Assembly: GCA_041395665.1 (NCBI GenBank)
Contig: JAWLAB010000003.1
Span: forward strand, 98,961-162,960
Origin: Pseudomonadales bacterium
Lineage (GTDB): Bacteria > Pseudomonadota > Gammaproteobacteria > Pseudomonadales > UBA7239
Length of the DNA: 64,000 nucleotides
Direction of reading: 5' to 3'
Below the pieces are notes generated by a model that did no database searches, had not been told where the DNA came from, and worked only from the letters and a program-made list of their open reading frames with translations. The position numbers were made by a program, and so were the translations under genes. This document shows positions 792-44,780 of this stretch, one piece after another. Position 1 is the first letter of the stretch. Each line of letters opens with the position of its first letter.

Positions 792-891
792 AACTTTTCT
801 CCTTTATATACTGCGTAGGAATGGGAATGAATCGTATTATCATATCCCTTTGATATTTATAGAGTATTTATCGTTCTTATACGAATTAAAG

Positions 892-1761
892 TCAAGTTTT
901 TTGCTGGCGTAATCGTTCAATGAGTACAGATGCATCGCTGCGGTTATGCCCCATGTTTTGTAGTTCTTTGTAGTACTGATTGATTTGTTCAACGCCTTGC
1001 AATTCGCAATGAAAATCTTTCGCAGCGGCAAGAGCGATTTCTAAATCTTTTCTCACCCAATCCACTGCAAAACCAAAGTCGTATTCGCCACGCAACATGG
1101 TGTGAGCACGGTTATCCATCTGCCAAGATTGCGCTGCGCCTTGCGAAATAACTTCCAAAACGGCATCAGTATCCAAGCCTGCACTCTCGGCAAAAAATAA
1201 GCCTTCAGCCAAGCCGGCCACCACGCCGGTAAAGCAAATTTGGTTGACCATTTTGGTGAGCTGCCCAGCGCCTGCGTCACCAATGCGCTTGGCGCGTTTG
1301 CTGTAGGCGGCAATGACGGGTTCGATGCGCGTGAAGGCGGCTGCGTCGCCGCCAGCCATCACTGCCAACTGACCTTTTTTCGCGCCGGCTTGCCCGCCGG
1401 AAATGGGTGCGTCAATGAAATGCAGCCCTTGCTGTGCGGCGAGTACATACAGCTCGCGCGCAACGCGAGCCGAAGTGGTGCTGTGATCCACCCAAATCGC
1501 TTTCGGTTGCATATACGGGAAAGTAATGCTTGTCACTTCGCGTAAATCATCGTCATTGCCGACGCAGGAGAACACGATATCTGCGCCGTTAACGGCTTCA
1601 GCAATCGAAGTGACGCAAGTTTGTCCGTGTTGCTGCTGCCAAAGTGCTGCGCGTTCGGCGTTGCGGTTGTATGCCTGCACTTTGTAGCCAGCTTGTACGA
1701 GATGCCCAGCCATAGGGCCGCCCATGGTGCCGAGCCCGATCCATCCTATCGTCAGTGTCAT
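892..1761 (-). CDS. NAD(P)-dependent oxidoreductase, 3-hydroxyisobutyrate/6-phosphogluconate dehydrogenase-like family
   Basis: The Rossmann motif IGWIGLGTMGGPMAGHL lies at the N-terminus when the start is taken at internal MTLTIGW (1761). Length and downstream blocks (GDAGAGQLTKMVNQ) fit the HIBADH family. Confidence 0.75.
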   Translation of the reverse strand: MTLTIGWIGLGTMGGPMAGHLVQAGYKVQAYNRNAERAALWQQQHGQTCVTSIAEAVNGADIVFSCVGNDDDLREVTSITFPYMQPKAIWVDHSTTSARVARELYVLAAQQGLHFIDAPISGGQAGAKKGQLAVMAGGDAAAFTRIEPVIAAYSKRAKRIGDAGAGQLTKMVNQICFTGVVAGLAEGLFFAESAGLDTDAVLEVISQGAAQSWQMDNRAHTMLRGEYDFGFAVDWVRKDLEIALAAAKDFHCELQGVEQINQYYKELQNMGHNRSDASVLIERLRQQKT

Positions 1762-1827
1762 GAGTGCGCCTCGCAATGGGGTAGAATCGCGCATTCTGAA
1801 CCGTATCCACCAACAGGAAAACCACAC

Positions 1828-2352
1828 ATGGGTCACATTGCTGTCTATAACGTCACGGCCAAAATTCCTGCCGAGAAAGCGTGGGAAAAATTGAAAGATT
1901 TATCGCTGGCACACAACTATGTGCCGAATATCACCAAATGCGTGATCACCACCGCGCAGAAAGAGGGTGTGGGTGCGAGCCGTCGTGTTTCTGGTCCTCA
2001 ACAAGCCTTGGATGAAACGGTAACGGAATGGAACGAAGGACGCGGTTTTGTGATTCGTTTACACAACGGCAGCAAACCAGCTAAACCGTTTGGTGCGGCT
2101 AACTTTACTTACCGTATTGATAAAGTGGATGAGAAATCCTGCAAACTCACTTGCACCATGACTTATGAAATGGGCATGGGCTTTTTTGGTAGTTTGCTGC
2201 ACAGTTTGTTCATTGGTAATTTGATTCGCGGCAATATCCGCGATGTCGCTTTGTCGATGGCGTATTTTTACGAAACAGGTAAAAAGCCATCGAAAGAAGA
2301 TTTGGTGCGTTTGCGCGCTGAAGATAAAAAGAACGCCAAACCTTTCCCTTGA
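1828..2352 (+). CDS. SRPBCC (polyketide cyclase/START-like) family protein
   Basis: Start taken at ATG 1828 (MGHIAVYNVTAKIPAEKAWEKLKDL), divergent from the oxidoreductase. About 175 aa. The opening 'AEKVWE.L.D' type pattern is typical of SRPBCC proteins. Confidence 0.55.
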   Translation: MGHIAVYNVTAKIPAEKAWEKLKDLSLAHNYVPNITKCVITTAQKEGVGASRRVSGPQQALDETVTEWNEGRGFVIRLHNGSKPAKPFGAANFTYRIDKVDEKSCKLTCTMTYEMGMGFFGSLLHSLFIGNLIRGNIRDVALSMAYFYETGKKPSKEDLVRLRAEDKKNAKPFP

Positions 2353-14208: not shown

Positions 14209-14826
14209 ATGGCCACAGTTGATATCACTCCCATTACAGATTTTTTGCATTGTCGAACACCGCAGGCGTGGATTGATCGCGCGTTATGCGAACAGGAATT
14301 GTTGCTGATTGATCACGCCAATTGTGAAAAGAAAGCAGCTTCCACGGCGCTTGGTTTAATGTATCGCCATACGGATCAATATGAGTTGTTGCAGAAGTTG
14401 TCGCGCTTGGCGCGAGAGGAGCTGCGTCATTTTGAGCAAGTGGCTGCCATCATGAAAAAGCGCGGCATAGCCTATGTCACGACCACTGCATCGCGTTATG
14501 CAGCGAGTTTGCATGAGCATGTGCATAAACGAGACCCAGATAGGTTGGTCGATACGCTGATTCTCGGCGCGATTATTGAGGCGCGTTCATGTGAGCGATT
14601 TGCTGCGCTTGCGCCACACTTGGATGCTGCACTGCAAAAATTTTACCTCTCGCTATTGCAGTCAGAGTCGCGCCATTTTCAAGATTATTTGACGCTGGCG
14701 AGAAAAATAGCGACTGATGATATTGGTCAGCGTGTTGATTTCTTTCTGCAGCAAGAGCGACTGTTGATTGAGTCTCCGGATCCACATTTTCGTTTTCACA
14801 GTGGTGTGCCGCAGCTCACTGCTTAG
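14209..14826 (+). CDS. miaE: tRNA-(ms2io6A)-hydroxylase MiaE (diiron)
   Basis: 205 aa. Ferritin-like diiron motifs DHANCEKKAA, EELRHFEQV, IEARSCERF and ESRHFQDY are as in MiaE. Confidence 0.8.
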   Translation: MATVDITPITDFLHCRTPQAWIDRALCEQELLLIDHANCEKKAASTALGLMYRHTDQYELLQKLSRLAREELRHFEQVAAIMKKRGIAYVTTTASRYAASLHEHVHKRDPDRLVDTLILGAIIEARSCERFAALAPHLDAALQKFYLSLLQSESRHFQDYLTLARKIATDDIGQRVDFFLQQERLLIESPDPHFRFHSGVPQLTA

Positions 14827-15835
14827 GCGGCATAAAATCTTTTTCCAGCATTGCTGTAATTTTTTCTGCTGCAATAGCATGCCCGATAGCATTGGGATGC
14901 GTGTCGTCTTTTGGGTGAGGGCGCAATGACTCGTAAGGATGTGTGCTGAAGTCATTGAGCAAATCAATATGCGTGATGCCATTAGTTTGTAAAGTGCTAT
15001 TTACCTGTTGATGTATATCTCGCATGGGGTAATTGTTGAAATCAAGCAGCAATGGGAAAACGACGGTGGCAAACTTTGCGCCATCTTCCTGAGTCATTGT
15101 TTTTAAATCGCCCAGAGCCTGTGTCGTTGCATTCCATAAGTTTGGGTTAGCATAGATGCTTTGGTAATTATTTTTCTGATCAAATCGTTGAGTAATACTT
15201 TTCCATTGCAAAAAAATCCAAGCGCCTAATTGTGAGTGTTTAGCGAGTGTTTGGAAGGATGATGCTTGCTGTTTTGCACTGCCGACACTTTTCACGACAA
15301 AAGCCGATGGAATGGGGTCATTCAAAACATAGGCGAGCAACACAATGTCTGGCTTGTATTCATGCACGCGTGTTTTGTAGAGCTCTAATTCAGCGACAGT
15401 GCTGTATCCGTTAACGGCGAAATTTAATACTTCTGCAGGATAGCCATCAGCATTGAGTTGTTTTTCCACTAAACGCGCAAAGGTTTGTTCTAAAGGCACG
15501 CTGTAGCCGTAAGCAACGGAATCACCGAGGATGGCGATGCGTGTCACACCAGTTGTTTTATGTGCTGGAAAGTCAGCACCGCGAAAGCCTGCACTGTTGA
15601 TATTTGGGTCTTTGCGATCGAACTCCATGAATAACACAGGGTTGCTACTGCGGATAAGTTTTGCATTGAAGCGTTTGTTAGGCGTATCGCCTTTATCCAT
15701 GGTTTTTTGGTTAAAAACAGAGAGATAGCCGAAAGATTGCAGCGCGCGAATGCTGTACTCAGCAAAGATGGCTGTGAACAGCAGGGATAAGAGTGTAATG
15801 CTGAGATTGATAAGAAAAGAGCGCACAGTCATCAA
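14816..15835 (-). CDS. membrane-anchored SGNH/GDSL hydrolase
   Basis: N-terminal TM helix. SGNH blocks are ILGDSVAYG (I), NFAVNGYST (II), VLNDP (III) and DDTHPNAIGH (V). Confidence 0.7.
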   Translation of the reverse strand: MMTVRSFLINLSITLLSLLFTAIFAEYSIRALQSFGYLSVFNQKTMDKGDTPNKRFNAKLIRSSNPVLFMEFDRKDPNINSAGFRGADFPAHKTTGVTRIAILGDSVAYGYSVPLEQTFARLVEKQLNADGYPAEVLNFAVNGYSTVAELELYKTRVHEYKPDIVLLAYVLNDPIPSAFVVKSVGSAKQQASSFQTLAKHSQLGAWIFLQWKSITQRFDQKNNYQSIYANPNLWNATTQALGDLKTMTQEDGAKFATVVFPLLLDFNNYPMRDIHQQVNSTLQTNGITHIDLLNDFSTHPYESLRPHPKDDTHPNAIGHAIAAEKITAMLEKDFMPPKQ

Positions 15836-32510: not shown

Positions 32511-34226
32511 TTAGTGAATAGAGCGTTGAAAGGGTTCAATAGAACCTTCAACGATGTGTGCATCAAATTGTTGCAACAGCGCCATGACATTAGGATCGTT
32601 GCGAAAACTTTCTTCTGCCTCTTGTTGCAGTTGTGCTTTTTTCTGCTGCTGCAAACGATGCGGTGTCATATTTGCCGTAGTGCCGGTTGTGATGATGGCT
32701 TCACACGCACTGCCGAGAAACACCCCTAGAGCTTCAGATAAACGCGTGGCATGAGAAGCGTCAAATAAATTGGCTTGTGCGCTGTCCAGTGTGAAGTAAT
32801 AACGCGAGCCTTCGGTGCGATCTAAACAGCAGTGAGCAGCAGTATTGCGCACAATGCCCGCCAGAGGCAGCCTTTGCCACAACGAAGGCCAATCTTGCGT
32901 GTTTAGTGTTGCTGCATGATTTTGCGCAGTAACAGCGGGTTGTGGTGCAGTTGTTGAGGTCGGTGTAGAGGGTGTGAGTGTTAGCGGTGTGGGTTGTTGT
33001 GCAGCGCGAATAGCGGCGCTGCTGTTTACTGCGCTCGCGTTTACTGCATTTGTGTTTGCTGTATTGGTGTTTACTGGATTTGCGTTGGTGTTGGCGTTGG
33101 ACTTGGGTTCAGTTTTTTTTTTCTCGTTGCTCGTTGCTGAGCCTTGTGGGCGAAACGCCAACATACGCAGCAACGCCATCTCAAAACCGGAACGCATATC
33201 TGGCGCTAACGACAAATCGCGCTGACCGTTCAAACCAATTTGGTAATACAGCTGCACATCTTCTGCTGTCATGCTGTTGGTCAACTGCTGCAAACGCTCG
33301 CGCTCATCCGGATATTGATCCAAAACGGAAGGCGCGGCTTGCACAACAGCAATACGATGTAGCAGTGACAACAATTCATCCAGCGCGCCGCTGTAGTCAG
33401 GGTTTTGTTCAGCAAGTTGCGCAATGGCAGCTAATAACGCAGGCGCATCGTTAGCGATCAGTGCATCCAACATCGGATGAATCAAACGGCGATCCATCGT
33501 GCCCAGCATGTCGCGCACGCCGAGTTCAGCAATTTTTTCGCCACCAAATGCGATTGCTTGATCGGTGAGGGAGAGTGCATCGCGCATAGAGCCGTCAGCT
33601 GCTCGTGCTAACAACCATAAAGCAGGGTCTTCGTGCGGAATCATTTCTTTGTCGAGAATATTTTTTAAGTGCTCGACAATTTTTTCTGGCAATAAATTTT
33701 TCAGATTGAATTGCAAACAGCGAGAAAGAACCGTCACAGGTAGTTTGTGTGGATCAGTTGTCGCGAGCAAAAACTTTACATGTGCAGGCGGTTCTTCCAA
33801 TGTTTTTAACAGTGCATTAAAACTGCTGGTGGAGAGCATGTGCACTTCGTCGATCAAATACACTTTGAAACGACCGCGTGCAGGGAGGTATTGCACATTG
33901 TCGAGAATCTCACGCGTGTCTTCGACTTTGGTGCGCGAAGCGGCGTCAATTTCAATCAAATCAACAAAGCGGCCTTCAGTAATTTCGCGGCAGGCGGCGC
34001 ATTGACCGCAAGGTTGTGAGCTGATGCCCGTTTCACAGTTGAGGCATTTGGCGAGTATGCGCGCGATGGTGGTTTTGCCCACACCGCGTGTGCCTGTAAA
34101 CAAATAAGCGTGGTGCAGACGGTTGTGATCCAACGCATTGATCAGTGCTTGCAGCACATGCGTTTGACCAGCCATGTCTTTGAAATGTTGCGGTCGCCAT
34201 TTGCGGGCGAGAACTTGGTAGCTCAT
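32511..34226 (-). CDS. dnaX: DNA polymerase III subunits tau/gamma
   Basis: MSYQVLARKWRPQ..., Walker A GTRGVGKTT, zinc module CGQCAACREI, SRC motif. 571 aa with a low-complexity N/T/A-rich linker. Confidence 0.95.
   Translation of the reverse strand: MSYQVLARKWRPQHFKDMAGQTHVLQALINALDHNRLHHAYLFTGTRGVGKTTIARILAKCLNCETGISSQPCGQCAACREITEGRFVDLIEIDAASRTKVEDTREILDNVQYLPARGRFKVYLIDEVHMLSTSSFNALLKTLEEPPAHVKFLLATTDPHKLPVTVLSRCLQFNLKNLLPEKIVEHLKNILDKEMIPHEDPALWLLARAADGSMRDALSLTDQAIAFGGEKIAELGVRDMLGTMDRRLIHPMLDALIANDAPALLAAIAQLAEQNPDYSGALDELLSLLHRIAVVQAAPSVLDQYPDERERLQQLTNSMTAEDVQLYYQIGLNGQRDLSLAPDMRSGFEMALLRMLAFRPQGSATSNEKKKTEPKSNANTNANPVNTNTANTNAVNASAVNSSAAIRAAQQPTPLTLTPSTPTSTTAPQPAVTAQNHAATLNTQDWPSLWQRLPLAGIVRNTAAHCCLDRTEGSRYYFTLDSAQANLFDASHATRLSEALGVFLGSACEAIITTGTTANMTPHRLQQQKKAQLQQEAEESFRNDPNVMALLQQFDAHIVEGSIEPFQRSIH
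33113..33122 (-). promoter_or_regulatory. candidate dnaX -1 frameshift (or slippage) site producing gamma
   Basis: Minus-strand GAG AAA AAA AAA ACT GAA. This is a 10-A run at codons 369-371. The -1 frame reads AAC TGA immediately afterwards. Confidence 0.5.
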
Positions 34227-34271
34227 GACCAATCAGTGCGTAAAGAAAGGGATGGCTAGTATAAGGGAAGA

Positions 34272-34384
<113 letters not shown>

Positions 34385-39924: not shown

Positions 39925-40434
39925 TTAAGATTTCAGCGCCAGTGGTAAGCCAGCGATGACCATCGTCACCGCATCGCATTGTTTGGCTAATTCTTGATGG
40001 AGTCGACCAGCTTCATCGACAAAACGCCGTGTAAGTGGATCCATCGGCACTATGCCCATGCCCACTTCGTTGCTCACCAAAAAAATATCACCTGCTAGTT
40101 GCGGTAGCGTGCTTAAAAAACTTGCTCGCTCGCGTATAAAAACTTCGTTGCCTGCCAGCAAAATATTGGTTAGCCACAGCGTTAAACAATCGACAAGTAT
40201 GCATGTGTCTTTTGCTGCGTGTTGTCGCAGTGTGGCAGCGAGTTGTAACGGCTCTTCAACCGTAAACCAGCGCGCATCCCGCGAAGTTTGGTGATGGTGA
40301 ATGCGTGCTTGCATTTCTCCATCTAAAGCTTCAGAGGTGGCGATGTAAACCAACTTTTTGTTAGTTGCCAGTCCAGTTGTTTCTGCAAAGTGACTTTTAC
40401 CAGAGCGCGCACCGCCGAGGATGAGGTGTTTCAT
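39925..40434 (-). CDS. cobU: adenosylcobinamide kinase / adenosylcobinamide-phosphate guanylyltransferase
   Basis: 169 aa: P-loop LILGGARSGKS, YIAT, H..R block, VSNEVG.GIVP. Confidence 0.9.
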   Translation of the reverse strand: MKHLILGGARSGKSHFAETTGLATNKKLVYIATSEALDGEMQARIHHHQTSRDARWFTVEEPLQLAATLRQHAAKDTCILVDCLTLWLTNILLAGNEVFIRERASFLSTLPQLAGDIFLVSNEVGMGIVPMDPLTRRFVDEAGRLHQELAKQCDAVTMVIAGLPLALKS

Positions 40435-40634
40435 GGCTTAGTTTCTTCTGAAGATGTATTTAGTTTTGTTTCAAGTTGTTTCATGATTTCTGTAGCCAAA
40501 ATTTGGTTGCCTTGTGCAGTCGTGTGAAGATCTGGAAAAAAATAAATATTTCCTTTGTCTTTCTCAGGCTGAAGATTCTTGAATGTTGCAATGGTATCGA
40601 TAAGGTGAGGTGAGGTGAGGTGAGGTAATGGCAT
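40431..40634 (-). CDS. SGNH hydrolase C-terminal fragment (block V), out of frame with the upstream part
   Basis: MPLPHLTSPHLIDT...FFPDLHTTAQGNQILA carries the DxxH catalytic block. Its stop overlaps the cobU start (ATGA). It begins inside the pentanucleotide tract. Confidence 0.5.
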   Translation of the reverse strand: MPLPHLTSPHLIDTIATFKNLQPEKDKGNIYFFPDLHTTAQGNQILATEIMKQLETKLNTSSEETKP

Positions 40635-41436
40635 TGATTGCCTGTGCGGTTCTTATAGTAACTTTATTGGCCTGCTTGTAGTAACCCTTATTGGCCGCAT
40701 AGGTTACTAGGAAAACTTTAATGTTATGGTTCTCGCCATATTGGATAAGTTTTTCCATGTTTTTCTGCATTTCTACTTCTACATCAAAATGCATGCTCTG
40801 TGGACGAAAGCTCATCGAGAAATCAAGTTTTATATTTTTGTAGTTGATAGTGGCGGGTTGTCCTTTGGCTGTTTCAGTTTGTTTAGGGTCAGATGTAGTA
40901 ATTGCCGCTAACGCATCGCCTTGGAAGGGTTCTCTTGAGAGCAGGCAGTAAAGTTTATAAATTCGAGAATACAGTTTGATCCGTTGTATTGGTTGAAAGG
41001 CATTTTGTTCGATAAGCCGTGACTCTGCACTTGCAATTGGTGTCGTCCAACTATCGTTTGTGCCTATCATCACAAGAACAATATCTGGTTGAAATTGTTT
41101 AATTGCCTCTTCGAAATTGGCAACAAGTCGAGAAGAATTGGTACCAGGATAGCCAAGGTTAATTACTTCAATGGCTTTATTTTTGTGGGTGGTGTTCCAA
41201 ATTGTCTCCAGTTGCTTCGGGTAGGAGTCTTCCTTATCAAGATAAAGCCCGTAAGTATTGGAATCCCCCATTGTGACAATGCGAAGGTTTTGTGTGAGCC
41301 AAGTATTGGCTATATTTTTGTGCAAAAAATGCTGATTTAAAGAACTTCCTGCCTGCAACACCAATTCAAGTAACAGAATTGTGGATAGCGGCAGGAATAA
41401 GAGCCAGTAAGCAGTTTTTTTAAAGCGGCGGAGCAT
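40564..41436 (-). CDS. membrane-anchored SGNH/GDSL hydrolase, N-terminal 290 codons (blocks I-III), ending prematurely after a pentanucleotide tract
   Basis: TM helix, then IVTMGDSNTYG (I), LGYPGTNS (II) and MIGTNDS (III). The frame ends ...AITSPHLTSPYRYHCNIQESSA* just past the repeat. Its start overlaps the ettA stop (TAATG). Confidence 0.7.
   Translation of the reverse strand: MLRRFKKTAYWLLFLPLSTILLLELVLQAGSSLNQHFLHKNIANTWLTQNLRIVTMGDSNTYGLYLDKEDSYPKQLETIWNTTHKNKAIEVINLGYPGTNSSRLVANFEEAIKQFQPDIVLVMIGTNDSWTTPIASAESRLIEQNAFQPIQRIKLYSRIYKLYCLLSREPFQGDALAAITTSDPKQTETAKGQPATINYKNIKLDFSMSFRPQSMHFDVEVEMQKNMEKLIQYGENHNIKVFLVTYAANKGYYKQANKVTIRTAQAINAITSPHLTSPYRYHCNIQESSA
40603..40626. repeat. pentanucleotide tandem repeat (AGGTG)4.8, CACCT on the coding strand
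   Basis: Direct reading gives aggtg aggtg aggtg aggtg aggt. It lies at the exact frame break of the SGNH gene. Confidence 0.9.
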
Positions 41437-43097
41437 TATTCTCGCAGCCGCTTGTATTTCATGCGCGTGGGTTGTTGATCGCCCATGCGCGCTTTGTGAT
41501 CGGCTTCGTATTCGGTGTAAGTACCTTCAAAGAACACGGCGCTGCTTTCACCTTCAAAAGCGAGAATGTGTGTGCAAACGCGATCAAGAAACCAGCGATC
41601 GTGCGAAATCACCATCGCGCAGCCGGGGAAGTTTTGCAGTGCTTCTTCCAAGGCGCGCAGCGTTTCTACATCGAGGTCGTTTGACGGTTCGTCGAGCAGC
41701 AAAAAGTTGCCGCCTTCTTTCAGTGTACAGGCCAATTGCAGACGACCGCGTTCACCACCAGACAATTCGCCAACGCGTTTTTGTTGATCAGAGCCTTTGA
41801 AATTAAAGCGACCTAAGTAAGCGCGTGAAGGCACTTCATAGTTGCCAATTTTGATGATGTCGAGTCCGTCAGATACTGCTTCCCAAACGGTTTTGTTGGC
41901 ATCCAATTTTTCACGCGATTGCTCAACATAGGCGAGTTTTACCGTGTCACCCAGCGTGATGCTGCCTTGGTCCGGTTTCTCTTGACCGGTGATCATGCGG
42001 AACAGGGTCGATTTGCCTGCACCGTTGGGGCCGATGATGCCGACGATGGCGCCTTTCGGAACTGCAAAAGAAAGATCATCAACCAGCACGCGATCACCGA
42101 ACGATTTGGTGACACGATCCAGCTCTAATACTTTATCGCCTAAACGCGGGCCGGGTGGAATGTAAATTTCATTGGTTTCATTGCGCGCTTGATATTCTTG
42201 CGAATTCAATTCGTCAAAGCGTGCGAGACGTGCTTTGTTTTTTGCGTGACGACCTTTGGGGTTTTGACGCACCCATTCCAATTCGCGTTCGATAGTTTTT
42301 TGACGCGCTGCTTCAGTGCGCTCTTCTTGTTTCAAACGCGCTTCTTTTTGTTCCAACCAAGAAGTGTAATTGCCTTCATACGGGATGCCGTGGCCGCGAT
42401 CGAGTTCCAAAATCCAACCCGCTGCATTGTCGAGGAAGTAACGGTCGTGCGTGATCGCAACCACCGTACCCGGAAATTCCACCAGAAAATGTTCCAGCCA
42501 TGCGACAGATTCTGCATCCAAGTGGTTAGTCGGTTCATCGAGCAGCAACATATCAGGGCGCGACATCAGTAAACGACACAGCGCCACGCGGCGGCGTTCA
42601 CCGCCAGAGAGTTTGGTGACATCAGCATCCCACGGCGGTAGGCGCAGCGCATCGGCAGCGACTTCCAGTTTGTGTTCGATGCTGTGTGCATCCCACGCCT
42701 GAATAATGTCTTCAAACTCGGCTTGTTTTTTTGCCAGCGCATCAAAGTCAGCATTTTCTTCGGCGTAAGCCGCGTAAACAGCATCCAAACCTTTTAAGGC
42801 ATTGAGTGGTTCTGCTAAGCCTTCTTCCACATTGCCGCGCACATCTTTGTTGGCATCTAACTGTGGCTCTTGTGGTAGATAACCAATTTTTAGATTACTC
42901 ATCGGACGCGCTTCACCGATGAAATCGGTATCAATGCCTGCCATAATTTTTAACAAAGTCGATTTGCCGGAACCGTTTAAGCCTAGTACGCCAATTTTTG
43001 CGCCTGGGAAAAATGACAGTGAAATATCTTTGAGAATTTCACGCTTCGGTGGTACGACTTTACCGAGGCGATTCATAGTGAAAACATATTGAGCCAT
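41436..43097 (-). CDS. ettA: energy-dependent translational throttle protein EttA (ABC-F)
   Basis: MAQYVFTMNRLGKVVPPKREILKDISLSFFPGAKIGVLGLNGSGKSTLL. Two ABC cassettes, 553 aa. Confidence 0.93.
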   Translation of the reverse strand: MAQYVFTMNRLGKVVPPKREILKDISLSFFPGAKIGVLGLNGSGKSTLLKIMAGIDTDFIGEARPMSNLKIGYLPQEPQLDANKDVRGNVEEGLAEPLNALKGLDAVYAAYAEENADFDALAKKQAEFEDIIQAWDAHSIEHKLEVAADALRLPPWDADVTKLSGGERRRVALCRLLMSRPDMLLLDEPTNHLDAESVAWLEHFLVEFPGTVVAITHDRYFLDNAAGWILELDRGHGIPYEGNYTSWLEQKEARLKQEERTEAARQKTIERELEWVRQNPKGRHAKNKARLARFDELNSQEYQARNETNEIYIPPGPRLGDKVLELDRVTKSFGDRVLVDDLSFAVPKGAIVGIIGPNGAGKSTLFRMITGQEKPDQGSITLGDTVKLAYVEQSREKLDANKTVWEAVSDGLDIIKIGNYEVPSRAYLGRFNFKGSDQQKRVGELSGGERGRLQLACTLKEGGNFLLLDEPSNDLDVETLRALEEALQNFPGCAMVISHDRWFLDRVCTHILAFEGESSAVFFEGTYTEYEADHKARMGDQQPTRMKYKRLRE

Positions 43098-43225: not shown

Positions 43226-44173
43226 CTACATTGTAGCAACATTGATAGTTGTATATCCGTGTTTGGCCATAAGTAATCGTGTTGCATCGACTTTGTTATG
43301 CCACCAAAGATCAAAAATAATATCTGGTGGGTTTATGTTGCAAGTTTTCTTTAGTTCTACTTTTTTCTTGACGAAGAAAATAGTGGCCAGCCCCTCAATT
43401 CCTTGTGGGACTCTTGGTTGTGAGCGAGTGAGAGAGCACTCCGTCAAACTTCGCTCAATCAGCCCATTGCGATCAGTGAAGTGTAGCTGGTTGGGAAATT
43501 GTGTAGCGAGGTGGTAGGCCACCATACCCATTTGACCACTAAGAATTTGGATTTTTTCATTTTGCTGTATTTTTATTTCTTTGATAATTGGAATTAGGCT
43601 TTCTATGGTGCTGATATTGGCTCGGTTGTCGGGTGAGTTTTTTTCAGAGAATGTATATTGATTGAGTGTGTGTTGATCCAATTTATTAGAAGAATAGTCA
43701 AGGTGAGAGCTGCTTTCTCGTTGGTTGTGAAGCAACTGAGTTATACAAATCCCTACCAAAAGCAGCCGAAAAACAATTGGATTGGGTGCTAATAATGAAA
43801 TGTATCTAGTTACCAGTAGAGCATGAATAGGGGTTAATGCTGCAATGAGACGCTGTTCTGGCATCCAGTCTCCGCCAGCCAAGATAATAAAGATGAGATA
43901 GCCGCTGCTAGTAATTGCAGCTGTAGCAATAAGCGAAGTTTCTTTATGTTTATAGCTTCGCCAAAGTAGATGAGCAGTGGCAAGGATGCTTGCTACTCCC
44001 ATCATTAGATTCATTCCATGAAAACCTTGCGTAAGATAGAGAAATCCGTTTTTTATAGTAGCAATAGATATTCCGTTAGATTTTGCTGCTACAGGTTGCG
44101 GAAAGATATCGCCAAAATATACCCAGCGAAAACAAAAAATAATTAATGCAGTCATTACGCTGATAGCTGACAT
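43226..44173 (-). CDS. polytopic membrane protein, C-terminal part of a split GT-C-like glycosyltransferase gene
   Basis: FGDIFPQPVAAKS, GGDWMPEQR and a C-terminal soluble region (FTDRNGLIERSL, PPDIIF) recall the arabinofuranosyl/GT-C type family. Overlaps the upstream ORF by 98 nt in another frame. Confidence 0.4.
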   Translation of the reverse strand: MSAISVMTALIIFCFRWVYFGDIFPQPVAAKSNGISIATIKNGFLYLTQGFHGMNLMMGVASILATAHLLWRSYKHKETSLIATAAITSSGYLIFIILAGGDWMPEQRLIAALTPIHALLVTRYISLLAPNPIVFRLLLVGICITQLLHNQRESSSHLDYSSNKLDQHTLNQYTFSEKNSPDNRANISTIESLIPIIKEIKIQQNEKIQILSGQMGMVAYHLATQFPNQLHFTDRNGLIERSLTECSLTRSQPRVPQGIEGLATIFFVKKKVELKKTCNINPPDIIFDLWWHNKVDATRLLMAKHGYTTINVATM

Positions 44174-44780
44174 GCCAATCCGCCAGCGTATTCCTTCTTT
44201 GCTGGCTTACAATCACTGTGGTGATTGTAAGTAAGGGAATGAAAATGGGCATTTCTGGCCGCACTAACTGTACGGTGAAGCCAAATAAAGCTGTCAGCCA
44301 TAGATGATGGGTTGATAGGCAATACACATATAACAGTAAGAGCGCTGCACAGATTCCCGTTTCTAAACCTGCATATGTCCAGTACACCAATGGGGTGGTA
44401 ACGCAGAGTAAAACGGATAATGTAAGCTGTTGTTGGCGAGCAATAAGCCACAGTAACGGTATGCATAGCCAACCAAATAGTAATGGTATAAAAAATCCCA
44501 CTAGCGCAGCACTCATATTGCTAAAACGCGCAAAGAGCGCTGTTAGTAATGTATGCAGTAATGATGAACTTTGCTCAACCCTTTCAAAGTTGTAGTTTAG
44601 GATTTCACCATAGTTGGCTAGGGAGTGTGCTGCAAAAAAAGTGATATGAGCATCATCAACACTGGTTGCAAAATTCCAGTAGCTAGAAGCAAAAGCAAAA
44701 AGTACGACGCCTATTGCCAATGCAAAAAAATCGTTTGGATAAGTGCCAAGATTTTTTGTCAATGTTTGCTGCTTAGCCAT
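44076..44780 (-). CDS. polytopic membrane protein, N-terminal part of a split GT-C-like glycosyltransferase gene
   Basis: Early-loop acidic motif SVDDAHITFFAAHSL followed by multiple TM helices. The last ~40 codons (QQRRNTLADWHVSYQRNDC...) look non-native. Confidence 0.4.
   Translation of the reverse strand: MAKQQTLTKNLGTYPNDFFALAIGVVLFAFASSYWNFATSVDDAHITFFAAHSLANYGEILNYNFERVEQSSSLLHTLLTALFARFSNMSAALVGFFIPLLFGWLCIPLLWLIARQQQLTLSVLLCVTTPLVYWTYAGLETGICAALLLLYVYCLSTHHLWLTALFGFTVQLVRPEMPIFIPLLTITTVIVSQQRRNTLADWHVSYQRNDCINYFLFSLGIFWRYLSATCSSKI

Follow-up and report, generated by a model that had tools for sequence, protein, structure and literature searches.

The DNA analysed here is a stretch of 64,000 nt (hereafter, the window) from a metagenome-assembled genome (MAG) of an uncultured Pseudomonadales bacterium (GenBank assembly GCA_041395665.1, contig JAWLAB010000003.1, positions 98,961 to 162,960), and its subject is a gene for an SGNH/GDSL hydrolase (40431..41436, minus strand) that is frameshifted in the window at a pentanucleotide tract. 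The tract (40603..40626, minus strand) is a perfect ACCT(CACCT)4 on the coding strand, AGGTG on the plus strand, which amounts to 4.8 units, and it stands in the coding-strand context ...GCC ATT ACC TCA CCT CAC CTC ACC TCA CCT TAT CGA.... Tandem Repeats Finder (TRF) reports it as a single perfect period-5 array of 4.8 copies, with a score of 48 and 100% matches. According to TRF and to a separate scan for simple sequence repeats (SSRs), this is the sole pentanucleotide array and the sole short-unit array with at least four copies in the window; besides the tract, the SSR scan picks up one (GC)5 and a few 8-10-nt runs of A/T, but nothing else. The longest period-5 run in 300 first-order Markov simulations of the window measures 11-17 nt, and the observed 24 nt are never reached.

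The tract is situated about 82% along the SGNH open reading frame (ORF) and separates two frames. The upstream frame (40564..41436, minus strand) encodes 290 amino acids (aa), comprising an N-terminal transmembrane helix and SGNH blocks I-III (GDSNTYG, GYPGTNS, GTNDS), and reaches a stop 13 codons past the tract; its product is identical to NCBI MEZ5539370.1. The downstream frame (40431..40634, minus strand, 67 aa) opens in the next frame, at an internal ATG 7 nt ahead of the tract, and carries block V (FFPDLHTTAQGN) with the invariant Asp304 and His306. An earlier note on this DNA had described an SGNH gene split exactly at a CACCT repeat into these two ORFs, and had calculated that the gain of one unit or the loss of two would rejoin them; repeat, ORFs and arithmetic all stand. 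Computed edits of +5 nt give a 336-aa ORF reading ...AINAITSPHLTSPHLIDTIATFKNL... and those of -10 nt give 331 aa, and the gene stays out of frame after -5, +10 or +15 nt (-1, +2 or +3 units). It forms one ORF at 2.8, 5.8 or 8.8 units, and in such in-frame alleles the tract encodes extra (TSPHL) loop residues. Since the unit has 5 nt, every unit gained or lost by slipped-strand mispairing shifts the reading frame.

The repaired protein matches the Pfam family Lipase_GDSL_2 at residues 56-309 (E 3e-17), a match that therefore spans the break at the tract; the scores are 64 bits for PF13472 (cut-off 32.9) and 35.9 bits for PF00657 (cut-off 23.6). In an alignment of 18 orthologues, D58 S59 N60, G98, N127 D128, D304 and H306 are invariant, and blocks I, II, III and V are conserved, the last of them being out of frame in the window allele. 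The AlphaFold2 (AF2) model (pLDDT 80.7) shows the three-layer alpha/beta/alpha SGNH fold, in which the tract residues (272-279) form a lower-confidence coil between the helix 251-271 and the strand 280-281 that precedes block V. This position in a loop accounts for the tolerance of 0, 1 or 2 additional TSPHL units. The N-terminus is basic (MLRRFKK), and its RRFKK motif together with an AF2 helix at residues 2-38 agrees with the membrane anchoring proposed previously. By the positive-inside rule, the model would place the catalytic domain outside the cytoplasm, probably in the periplasm, and the product is predicted to be a membrane-anchored enzyme of the esterase/acyltransferase type that would act on an envelope substrate.

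Regarding its relatives, the protein shares the SGNH fold with PatB/Ape1, the SGNH domains of OafA/OafB, acetyl-xylan esterases and TesA (Foldseek E 1e-7 to 1e-8), as well as blocks I, II, III and V, with the invariant Ser59, Gly98, Asn127 and His306, and a predicted extracytoplasmic topology with SGNH envelope and polysaccharide esterases and O-acyltransferases. Against the PDB, Foldseek retrieves generic SGNH relatives only (acetyl-xylan esterase 7ddy, TesA and PatB, with E 2e-8 to 1e-7 and 12-18% identity). Unlike the known SGNH enzymes (PatB/Ape1, OafA/OafB, TesA), from which this low identity separates it, the protein has an insertion of about 80 residues (136-215) and a block V of the form D-x-H instead of D-x-x-H. 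NCBIfam gives generic matches below threshold only, and a weak Pfam ALGX match (E 0.04), also below threshold, was not used. The gene 14816..15835, which the earlier note took for paralogue-like, does encode an SGNH protein, but with just 29% identity over 86 residues it is a distant family member and no close paralogue. The locus does not fit a two-component envelope O-acyltransferase system such as PatA/PatB, AlgI/AlgJ/AlgX or OafA: in contrast to such systems, no MBOAT or AT3 partner gene lies nearby, and Pfam finds no adjacent or fused membrane partner of either kind in the gene block (PP2C, GT-C-fold protein, EttA, CobU, DegP).

The SGNH gene is carried by at least 10 further public assemblies of the same species, at about 99.3-99.9% DNA identity, and across them the number of units varies. 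A search with the repaired protein returns a 336-aa protein that is 100% identical to it, and the 90% cluster to which this protein belongs comprises six near-identical members of 290, 300, 331, 331, 336 and 341 aa, which differ in the number of SPHLT repeats alone, save for the single substitutions Y->H (P0095) and N->T (P0097). The loci of these proteins are 99.3-100% identical to the window at the DNA level over up to 11 kb, and their tract runs measure 14, 14, 14, 29, 44, 54 and 54 nt. In-frame (ON) alleles have 2.8 units (14 nt, 331 aa; GCA_054403615.1, also represented by SRR34691382, and GCA_054403755.1), 5.8 units (29 nt, 336 aa; SRR15900772) or 8.8 units (44 nt, 341 aa; GCA_054403515.1). 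Out-of-frame (OFF) alleles have 4.8 units (24 nt, 290 aa; the window) or 10.8 units (54 nt, 300 aa; GCA_020049675.1, GCA_029559105.1 and GCA_020049695.1), the last of these assemblies (L066) bearing one T->A interruption in its 54-nt tract with the total length unchanged. A Logan contig assembled with k=31 from SRR34691375 opens with 30 nt of pure repeat, which means at least 6.8 units; that the contig breaks off within the tract would fit either heterogeneity or a tract exceeding k in length. Alleles of 1.8, 3.8, 6.8, 7.8, 9.8 and 11.8-14.8 units have no representative in a collection of 15 billion proteins, and by exact look-up no other assembly has the 290-aa product of the window. Exact-pattern scans of the JGI metagenome contigs, one for each flank of the tract, give 0 matches, and the species is absent from that collection. 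The comparison of tract length in related strains that had been proposed earlier thus reveals in-frame and out-of-frame states in near-identical genomes, rather than one broken frame shared by all relatives.

How mutable these tracts are expected to be depends on their length. Tetra- and pentanucleotide tracts typically need at least 5-6 units for hypermutability. By this measure the alleles of 8.8 and 10.8 units are long enough, those of 4.8 and 5.8 are borderline and that of 2.8 is too short.

The variation at the tract stands out against a quiet background. An alignment of seven sequences over about 11 kb contains 77 columns with single-nucleotide polymorphisms (SNPs), only 2 of them within the 1-kb SGNH gene, and just two indel loci: one is the tract, for which five alleles occur, and the other is a single additional A seen in the window alone. 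When ten more contigs are included and the compared region grows to about 15 kb, the number of indels does not rise. Set against this 1 indel in about 15 kb, the 4 or more length changes within 24 nt make the tract, by a rough lower estimate, about three orders of magnitude more variable per base. No tract allele has any other disabling change, and the segment past the tract is intact in every OFF copy.

An error of assembly confined to the window, with a true tract of 5.8 or 2.8 units and an intact gene, is unlikely in the light of this background, in which a single non-tract indel separates about 15 kb of the window from up to 12 other assemblies and long A/T homopolymers agree across assemblies. 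What makes such an error conceivable is that the window comes from a single MAG, with a contig of 409,585 bp, that its 290-aa product recurs in no other assembly, and that a glycosyltransferase gene of the GT-C fold, located two genes upstream of the SGNH gene and described below, is split in the long-contig MAGs L008 and L009, as fits indel-prone long-read assemblies. Even if true, this would affect only the statement that the gene is currently OFF, and not the nature of the locus.

The unit number could also matter less than it seems if expression were rescued without any change in the DNA, either by programmed +1/-2 ribosomal frameshifting on the repeat or by separately made halves that assemble. 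The internal ATG 7 nt before the tract has an AGG ahead of it and, with 4.8 or 10.8 units, shares its frame with block V, so that the two OFF alleles observed are both of the class whose frame lets this ATG read into the C-terminal part. The tract, however, offers no slippery heptamer (X XXY YYZ), stop or rare-codon pause; the device is not conserved, as the orthologues are single ORFs without a repeat; and an SGNH fold split before its last strand and helix is unlikely to be active. Programmed frameshifting and a split enzyme were rejected for the lack of a slippery site at the tract and of conservation in orthologues, and rescue of this kind is extremely improbable.

From the perspective of its origin, the tract appears to be recent. 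Orthologues at 43-69% identity keep every catalytic residue and have no tract, reading ...NH(Y/H)PYL(I/V)NTI... or ...NQY(x)DFIDx... at its position, which lies in a poorly conserved loop. They include those of the MAGs L008-L012, in which the synteny PP2C, GT-C, EttA, SGNH, CobU, DegP is conserved. As these orthologues are without the repeat, it is young and specific to the species-level lineage. In comparison with orthologues, whose synonymous sites are saturated, the ratio pN/pS amounts to about 0.26-0.3 on either side of the tract, and the low value past the tract indicates that the segment which is out of frame in OFF alleles has been maintained as coding sequence.

In part of the species the gene is missing altogether. 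It is absent from SRR34578565, SRR34578576 and SRR34578581 and from six similar places, and in at least 3 runs (contigs L061, L063 and L064) this is due to a precise deletion of 1003 nt, corresponding to 40435..41437 (minus strand) of the window, after which the stop of the upstream gene ettA overlaps the start of the downstream gene cobU. The two flanks of the deletion differ in their identity to the window (99.6% on the cobU side and 96.7% on the ettA side), which suggests an old or recombined haplotype. A different structure is seen in the Logan contig L067 (SRR34691345), which tracks the window to 40532, inside the 3' end of the SGNH gene, and continues beyond the junction with 30 nt (ATCTTGTTTGGCATACCAATGATAGCGATC, 2172..2201) found nowhere in the window or in the other loci; this junction may be a further structural variant or an assembly tip.

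The outright deletion of the gene in some strains would be expected under plain pseudogenisation, in which the enzyme has been dispensed with, a frameshift has become fixed at a mutable site and the tract length reflects neutral microsatellite drift. The neighbouring GT-C gene is likewise inactivated in the window strain, and 4-5 ON against 3-4 OFF assemblies do not depart significantly from the neutral expectation of 1/3 in frame. Decay of this sort is nevertheless distinctly improbable: no allele has a second lesion, the segment past the tract is preserved wherever the gene is OFF, purifying selection acts on the orthologues both ahead of the tract and past it, and three distinct in-frame lengths would arise by drift with a probability of about (1/3)^3 = 0.04.

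Taken together, the locus is probably a lineage-specific hypermutable coding repeat that creates ON and OFF alleles of a conditionally dispensable enzyme, itself probably periplasmic and acting on the envelope. It combines features by which contingency loci are recognised, that is, a perfect repeat within an ORF whose unit is not a multiple of three, a variation in unit number far above the background indel rate, and ON (331, 336 and 341 aa) as well as OFF (290 and 300 aa) alleles of an otherwise intact gene, although the OFF alleles come from less robust assemblies. The slipped-strand, phase-variable interpretation advanced in the earlier note is supported by this polymorphism in unit number, with both states represented and little other change in the gene.

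The sequence of events would be as follows. A CACCT microsatellite would have arisen within this one species in a tolerant loop at the surface, with the last long helix on one side and the strand ahead of the catalytic Asp-x-His block on the other. Slipped-strand mispairing during replication would change the number of units, so that 2.8, 5.8 and 8.8 (and 11.8...) units yield a full-length enzyme with 0, 1 or 2 additional TSPHL pentapeptides in the observed cases, and all remaining counts yield a product truncated ahead of Asp304/His306 that is predicted to be inactive. The window, with 4.8 units, would represent an OFF allele. The species would hold graded states, comprising strains with the gene deleted, strains with a short and probably stable ON tract (2.8 units) and strains with longer, switch-prone ON and OFF tracts, as could result if a dispensable activity that modifies the envelope were under fluctuating selection, exerted for example by phages or grazers. 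Replication slippage as the cause, the reversibility and rate of the changes and the selective agent are what we infer.

Several points weigh against such a locus. The evidence consists of assemblies, so that the polymorphism could have built up slowly between strains, and compared with classical contingency loci the alleles are short; the one with 2.8 units, found in three assemblies, probably slips only rarely. The tract lies near the 3' end of the ORF, unlike those of classical loci, and neither TRF nor the SSR scan finds a second SSR candidate in the window. Moreover, the OFF alleles could be first steps of decay, since the gene is dispensable. The quality of the OFF alleles is also at issue, as they derive from one MAG contig of 409.6 kb (the window) and three short contigs of 2.4-2.9 kb, and where a tract is longer than the k-mer of the assembler just its length modulo 5 is guaranteed. 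The best-assembled alleles are all ON, namely 2.8 units (an 11-12-kb NCBI contig and Logan), 5.8 units (29 nt, below the Logan k of 31) and 8.8 units (an 11.9-kb contig). Furthermore, the sole other indel of the window with respect to all assemblies is its private +A, located 3.6 kb away, and the SNP haplotype switches at the tract in L003 and probably in L004, which could mean strain-chimeric joins.

These last observations would be accounted for if the polymorphism concerned loop length only, viable genomes having (TSPHL)n insertions in multiples of three units, with the 4.8 and 10.8 alleles being artefacts of assembly or consensus, or transient deleterious variants, and no OFF state being adaptive. 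This explanation is rather unlikely. A tract of 10.8 units occurs in three assemblies, and the interrupted 54-nt variant, which keeps the total length, argues against an artefact of k-mer collapse; de Bruijn collapse was considered for the 54-nt allele and judged unlikely, because the interrupted variant is equally long and common values of k do not give 54. The private frameshift, nonsense and missense changes of the window in the GT-C gene fall in one gene (P=0.028) and look real. Finally, single-unit slippage between ON alleles must itself pass through OFF variants.

Compared with known systems, a switchable coding repeat has both close parallels and clear departures. Phase variation driven by SSRs is a textbook phenomenon in Neisseria, Haemophilus, Campylobacter and Helicobacter, with pentanucleotide coding repeats in the Neisseria switches opa (CTCTT) and modB (CCCAA) and tetranucleotide coding repeats in the lipooligosaccharide genes of Haemophilus influenzae, oafA included. 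To our knowledge, it has rarely been documented in uncultured environmental bacteria, and the remark of the earlier note that such a locus is unusual for this kind of genome is reasonable for an uncultured Pseudomonadales MAG. Contingency loci with SSRs in coding regions have been described in host-adapted pathogens (PMC9558356, PMC5909438, PMC11868660); among them, oafA of H. influenzae encodes a phase-variable O-acetylation enzyme (PMC9558356). The repeats of classical contingency loci are biased to the 5' end of the gene (Lin and Kussell 2011, PMC3315296). The CACCT locus resembles the SSR loci of Neisseria and Haemophilus in its perfect short tandem repeat within an ORF, the unit length of which is not divisible by 3, in a polymorphism of unit number that gives in-frame and out-of-frame alleles among near-identical genomes, and in its target, a dispensable enzyme that, judging from its sequence, likely acts on the envelope. 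It differs from them in its host, an uncultured Pseudomonadales MAG and no known host-adapted pathogen, in a shorter tract (2.8-10.8 units) that sits about 82% along the ORF and not towards its 5' end, and in having no further SSR locus within 64 kb and being known from sequence alone.

A second parallel is provided by the GCACA(n) tracts that Type III mod genes carry in environmental as well as pathogenic bacteria, and whose phase variation has been inferred from sequence surveys (Atack et al. 2018, PMC5909438). These are likewise pentanucleotide coding repeats with phase variation deduced from sequence, but here the target is an SGNH hydrolase and not a DNA methyltransferase, and the evidence is the variation of alleles among the metagenome assemblies of one species and not a database survey. 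What is new is the organism (an uncultured Pseudomonadales MAG), the target (a membrane-anchored SGNH enzyme) and population-level evidence obtained from metagenome assemblies. Public metagenome assemblies alone show a hypervariable coding microsatellite with ON and OFF alleles together with presence and absence of the gene that contains it. These data suggest that uncultured environmental bacteria, too, hedge their bets on envelope chemistry in the manner of contingency loci, and that assemblies of a single species can be compared to mine for such loci. They also flag the fast-evolving SGNH enzyme and the GT-C family as candidates for surface modification under fluctuating selection.

A bolder version, which is possible but offered tentatively, is that an uncultured and probably free-living member of the Pseudomonadales runs a genuine contingency locus for an SGNH enzyme that modifies the envelope, with the gene deleted, locked ON by a short tract or switchable through a long one, and that this enzyme may have a functional tie to the GT-C glycosyltransferase, whose gene is knocked out in the OFF strain. 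If true, this would be a case of SSR-based bet-hedging, for example against phages, documented by metagenomes outside host-adapted pathogens, and would offer a way into the function of a large GT-C family for which Pfam lacks a model.

The GT-C-fold glycosyltransferase gene (43226..44780, minus strand) is the second gene upstream of the SGNH gene, and its product in other assemblies has 541 aa. The copy in the window is disrupted by a +A at 44198, which splits it into 234 + 315 aa, and by TCG->TAG at 43227, and it has a Q->E change at 43717. Nothing else distinguishes the window from contig L050, which is 99.94% identical to it, and none of the three changes occurs in 12 other assemblies. That one frameshift, one nonsense and one missense mutation should all fall in this gene has a chance probability of P=0.028, and because of this clustering they look like a real inactivation and not like random consensus error. 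For a co-inactivation of the SGNH and GT-C genes, the comparison has n=4 (Fisher p=0.25), and the idea is weakened by runs of the SGNH-deletion project that carry an intact GT-C gene, not necessarily in the same strains. The 541-aa protein has no match in Pfam or NCBIfam; it is a multi-pass membrane protein with more than 130 homologues and an invariant acidic pair in its first loop, and its AF2 model (pLDDT 93) matches GT-C glycosyltransferases, with AftB at E 1.6e-8 and also ALG12/9, ArnT and PglB. Identity to the respective counterparts is 41-52% for GT-C, 52-66% for SGNH and 91-96% for EttA; GT-C and SGNH are the fastest-evolving genes in the block, which would fit enzymes of surface structures. 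The GT-C orthologue is split into two ORFs in L008 (about 800..2263) and L009 (641..2274), both being MAGs with very long contigs, and L010 and L011, which are short-read MAGs, have an intact copy; the splits could be long-read indel errors or recurrent inactivation. A divergent GT-C patch at about 44,005..44,200 is found in L054 and L055, where the surrounding DNA is >99% identical.

The immediate neighbours of the SGNH gene are tightly packed around it. Directly upstream is an ettA-like ABC-F gene (41436..43097, minus strand), whose stop overlaps the SGNH start (TAATG); Pfam finds ABC_tran/ABC_tran_Xtn on the identical ettA-like genes of L002 and L005. Directly downstream is cobU, for an adenosylcobinamide kinase (39925..40434, minus strand); in ON alleles its ATG and the stop of the SGNH gene overlap (ATGA). 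With 4.8 or 10.8 units, SGNH translation ends 130 nt short of cobU, and translational coupling to cobU would therefore be lost. A promoter and terminator scan of 39.5-46 kb gives nothing exceeding the shuffled expectation. In the 5' part of ettA there is a dense SNP patch at about 42,800..42,900, with some 17 differences in 90 nt with respect to L002, L005 and L007, which, like the divergent GT-C patch, looks like a short recombination tract. Many independent conspecific Logan contigs terminate at one point of ettA, at about 42,022..42,051, which suggests a repeat (the second ABC domain) or a breakpoint of strain variation. Among the compared contigs, the first 448 nt of L004 (JAKQCP010000166.1, 1..448) are unrelated to the SGNH locus, and this contig is probably chimeric.

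Further away in the window, dnaX (32511..34232) contains a degenerate 15-nt repeat of 4.3 copies in its tau/gamma linker (33023..33138, minus strand), encoding NANTNANPVNT.... Just 5' of this repeat in the gene is an A10 run (T10 on the plus strand, 33113..33122) that encodes ...EKKK...; A-run sites of the dnaX type are used for frameshifting or transcriptional slippage in other bacteria. An Rfam scan of the window returns no rRNA and only one RNA, the bacterial small SRP RNA (RF00169, 66 bits), at 34281..34376 on the minus strand.

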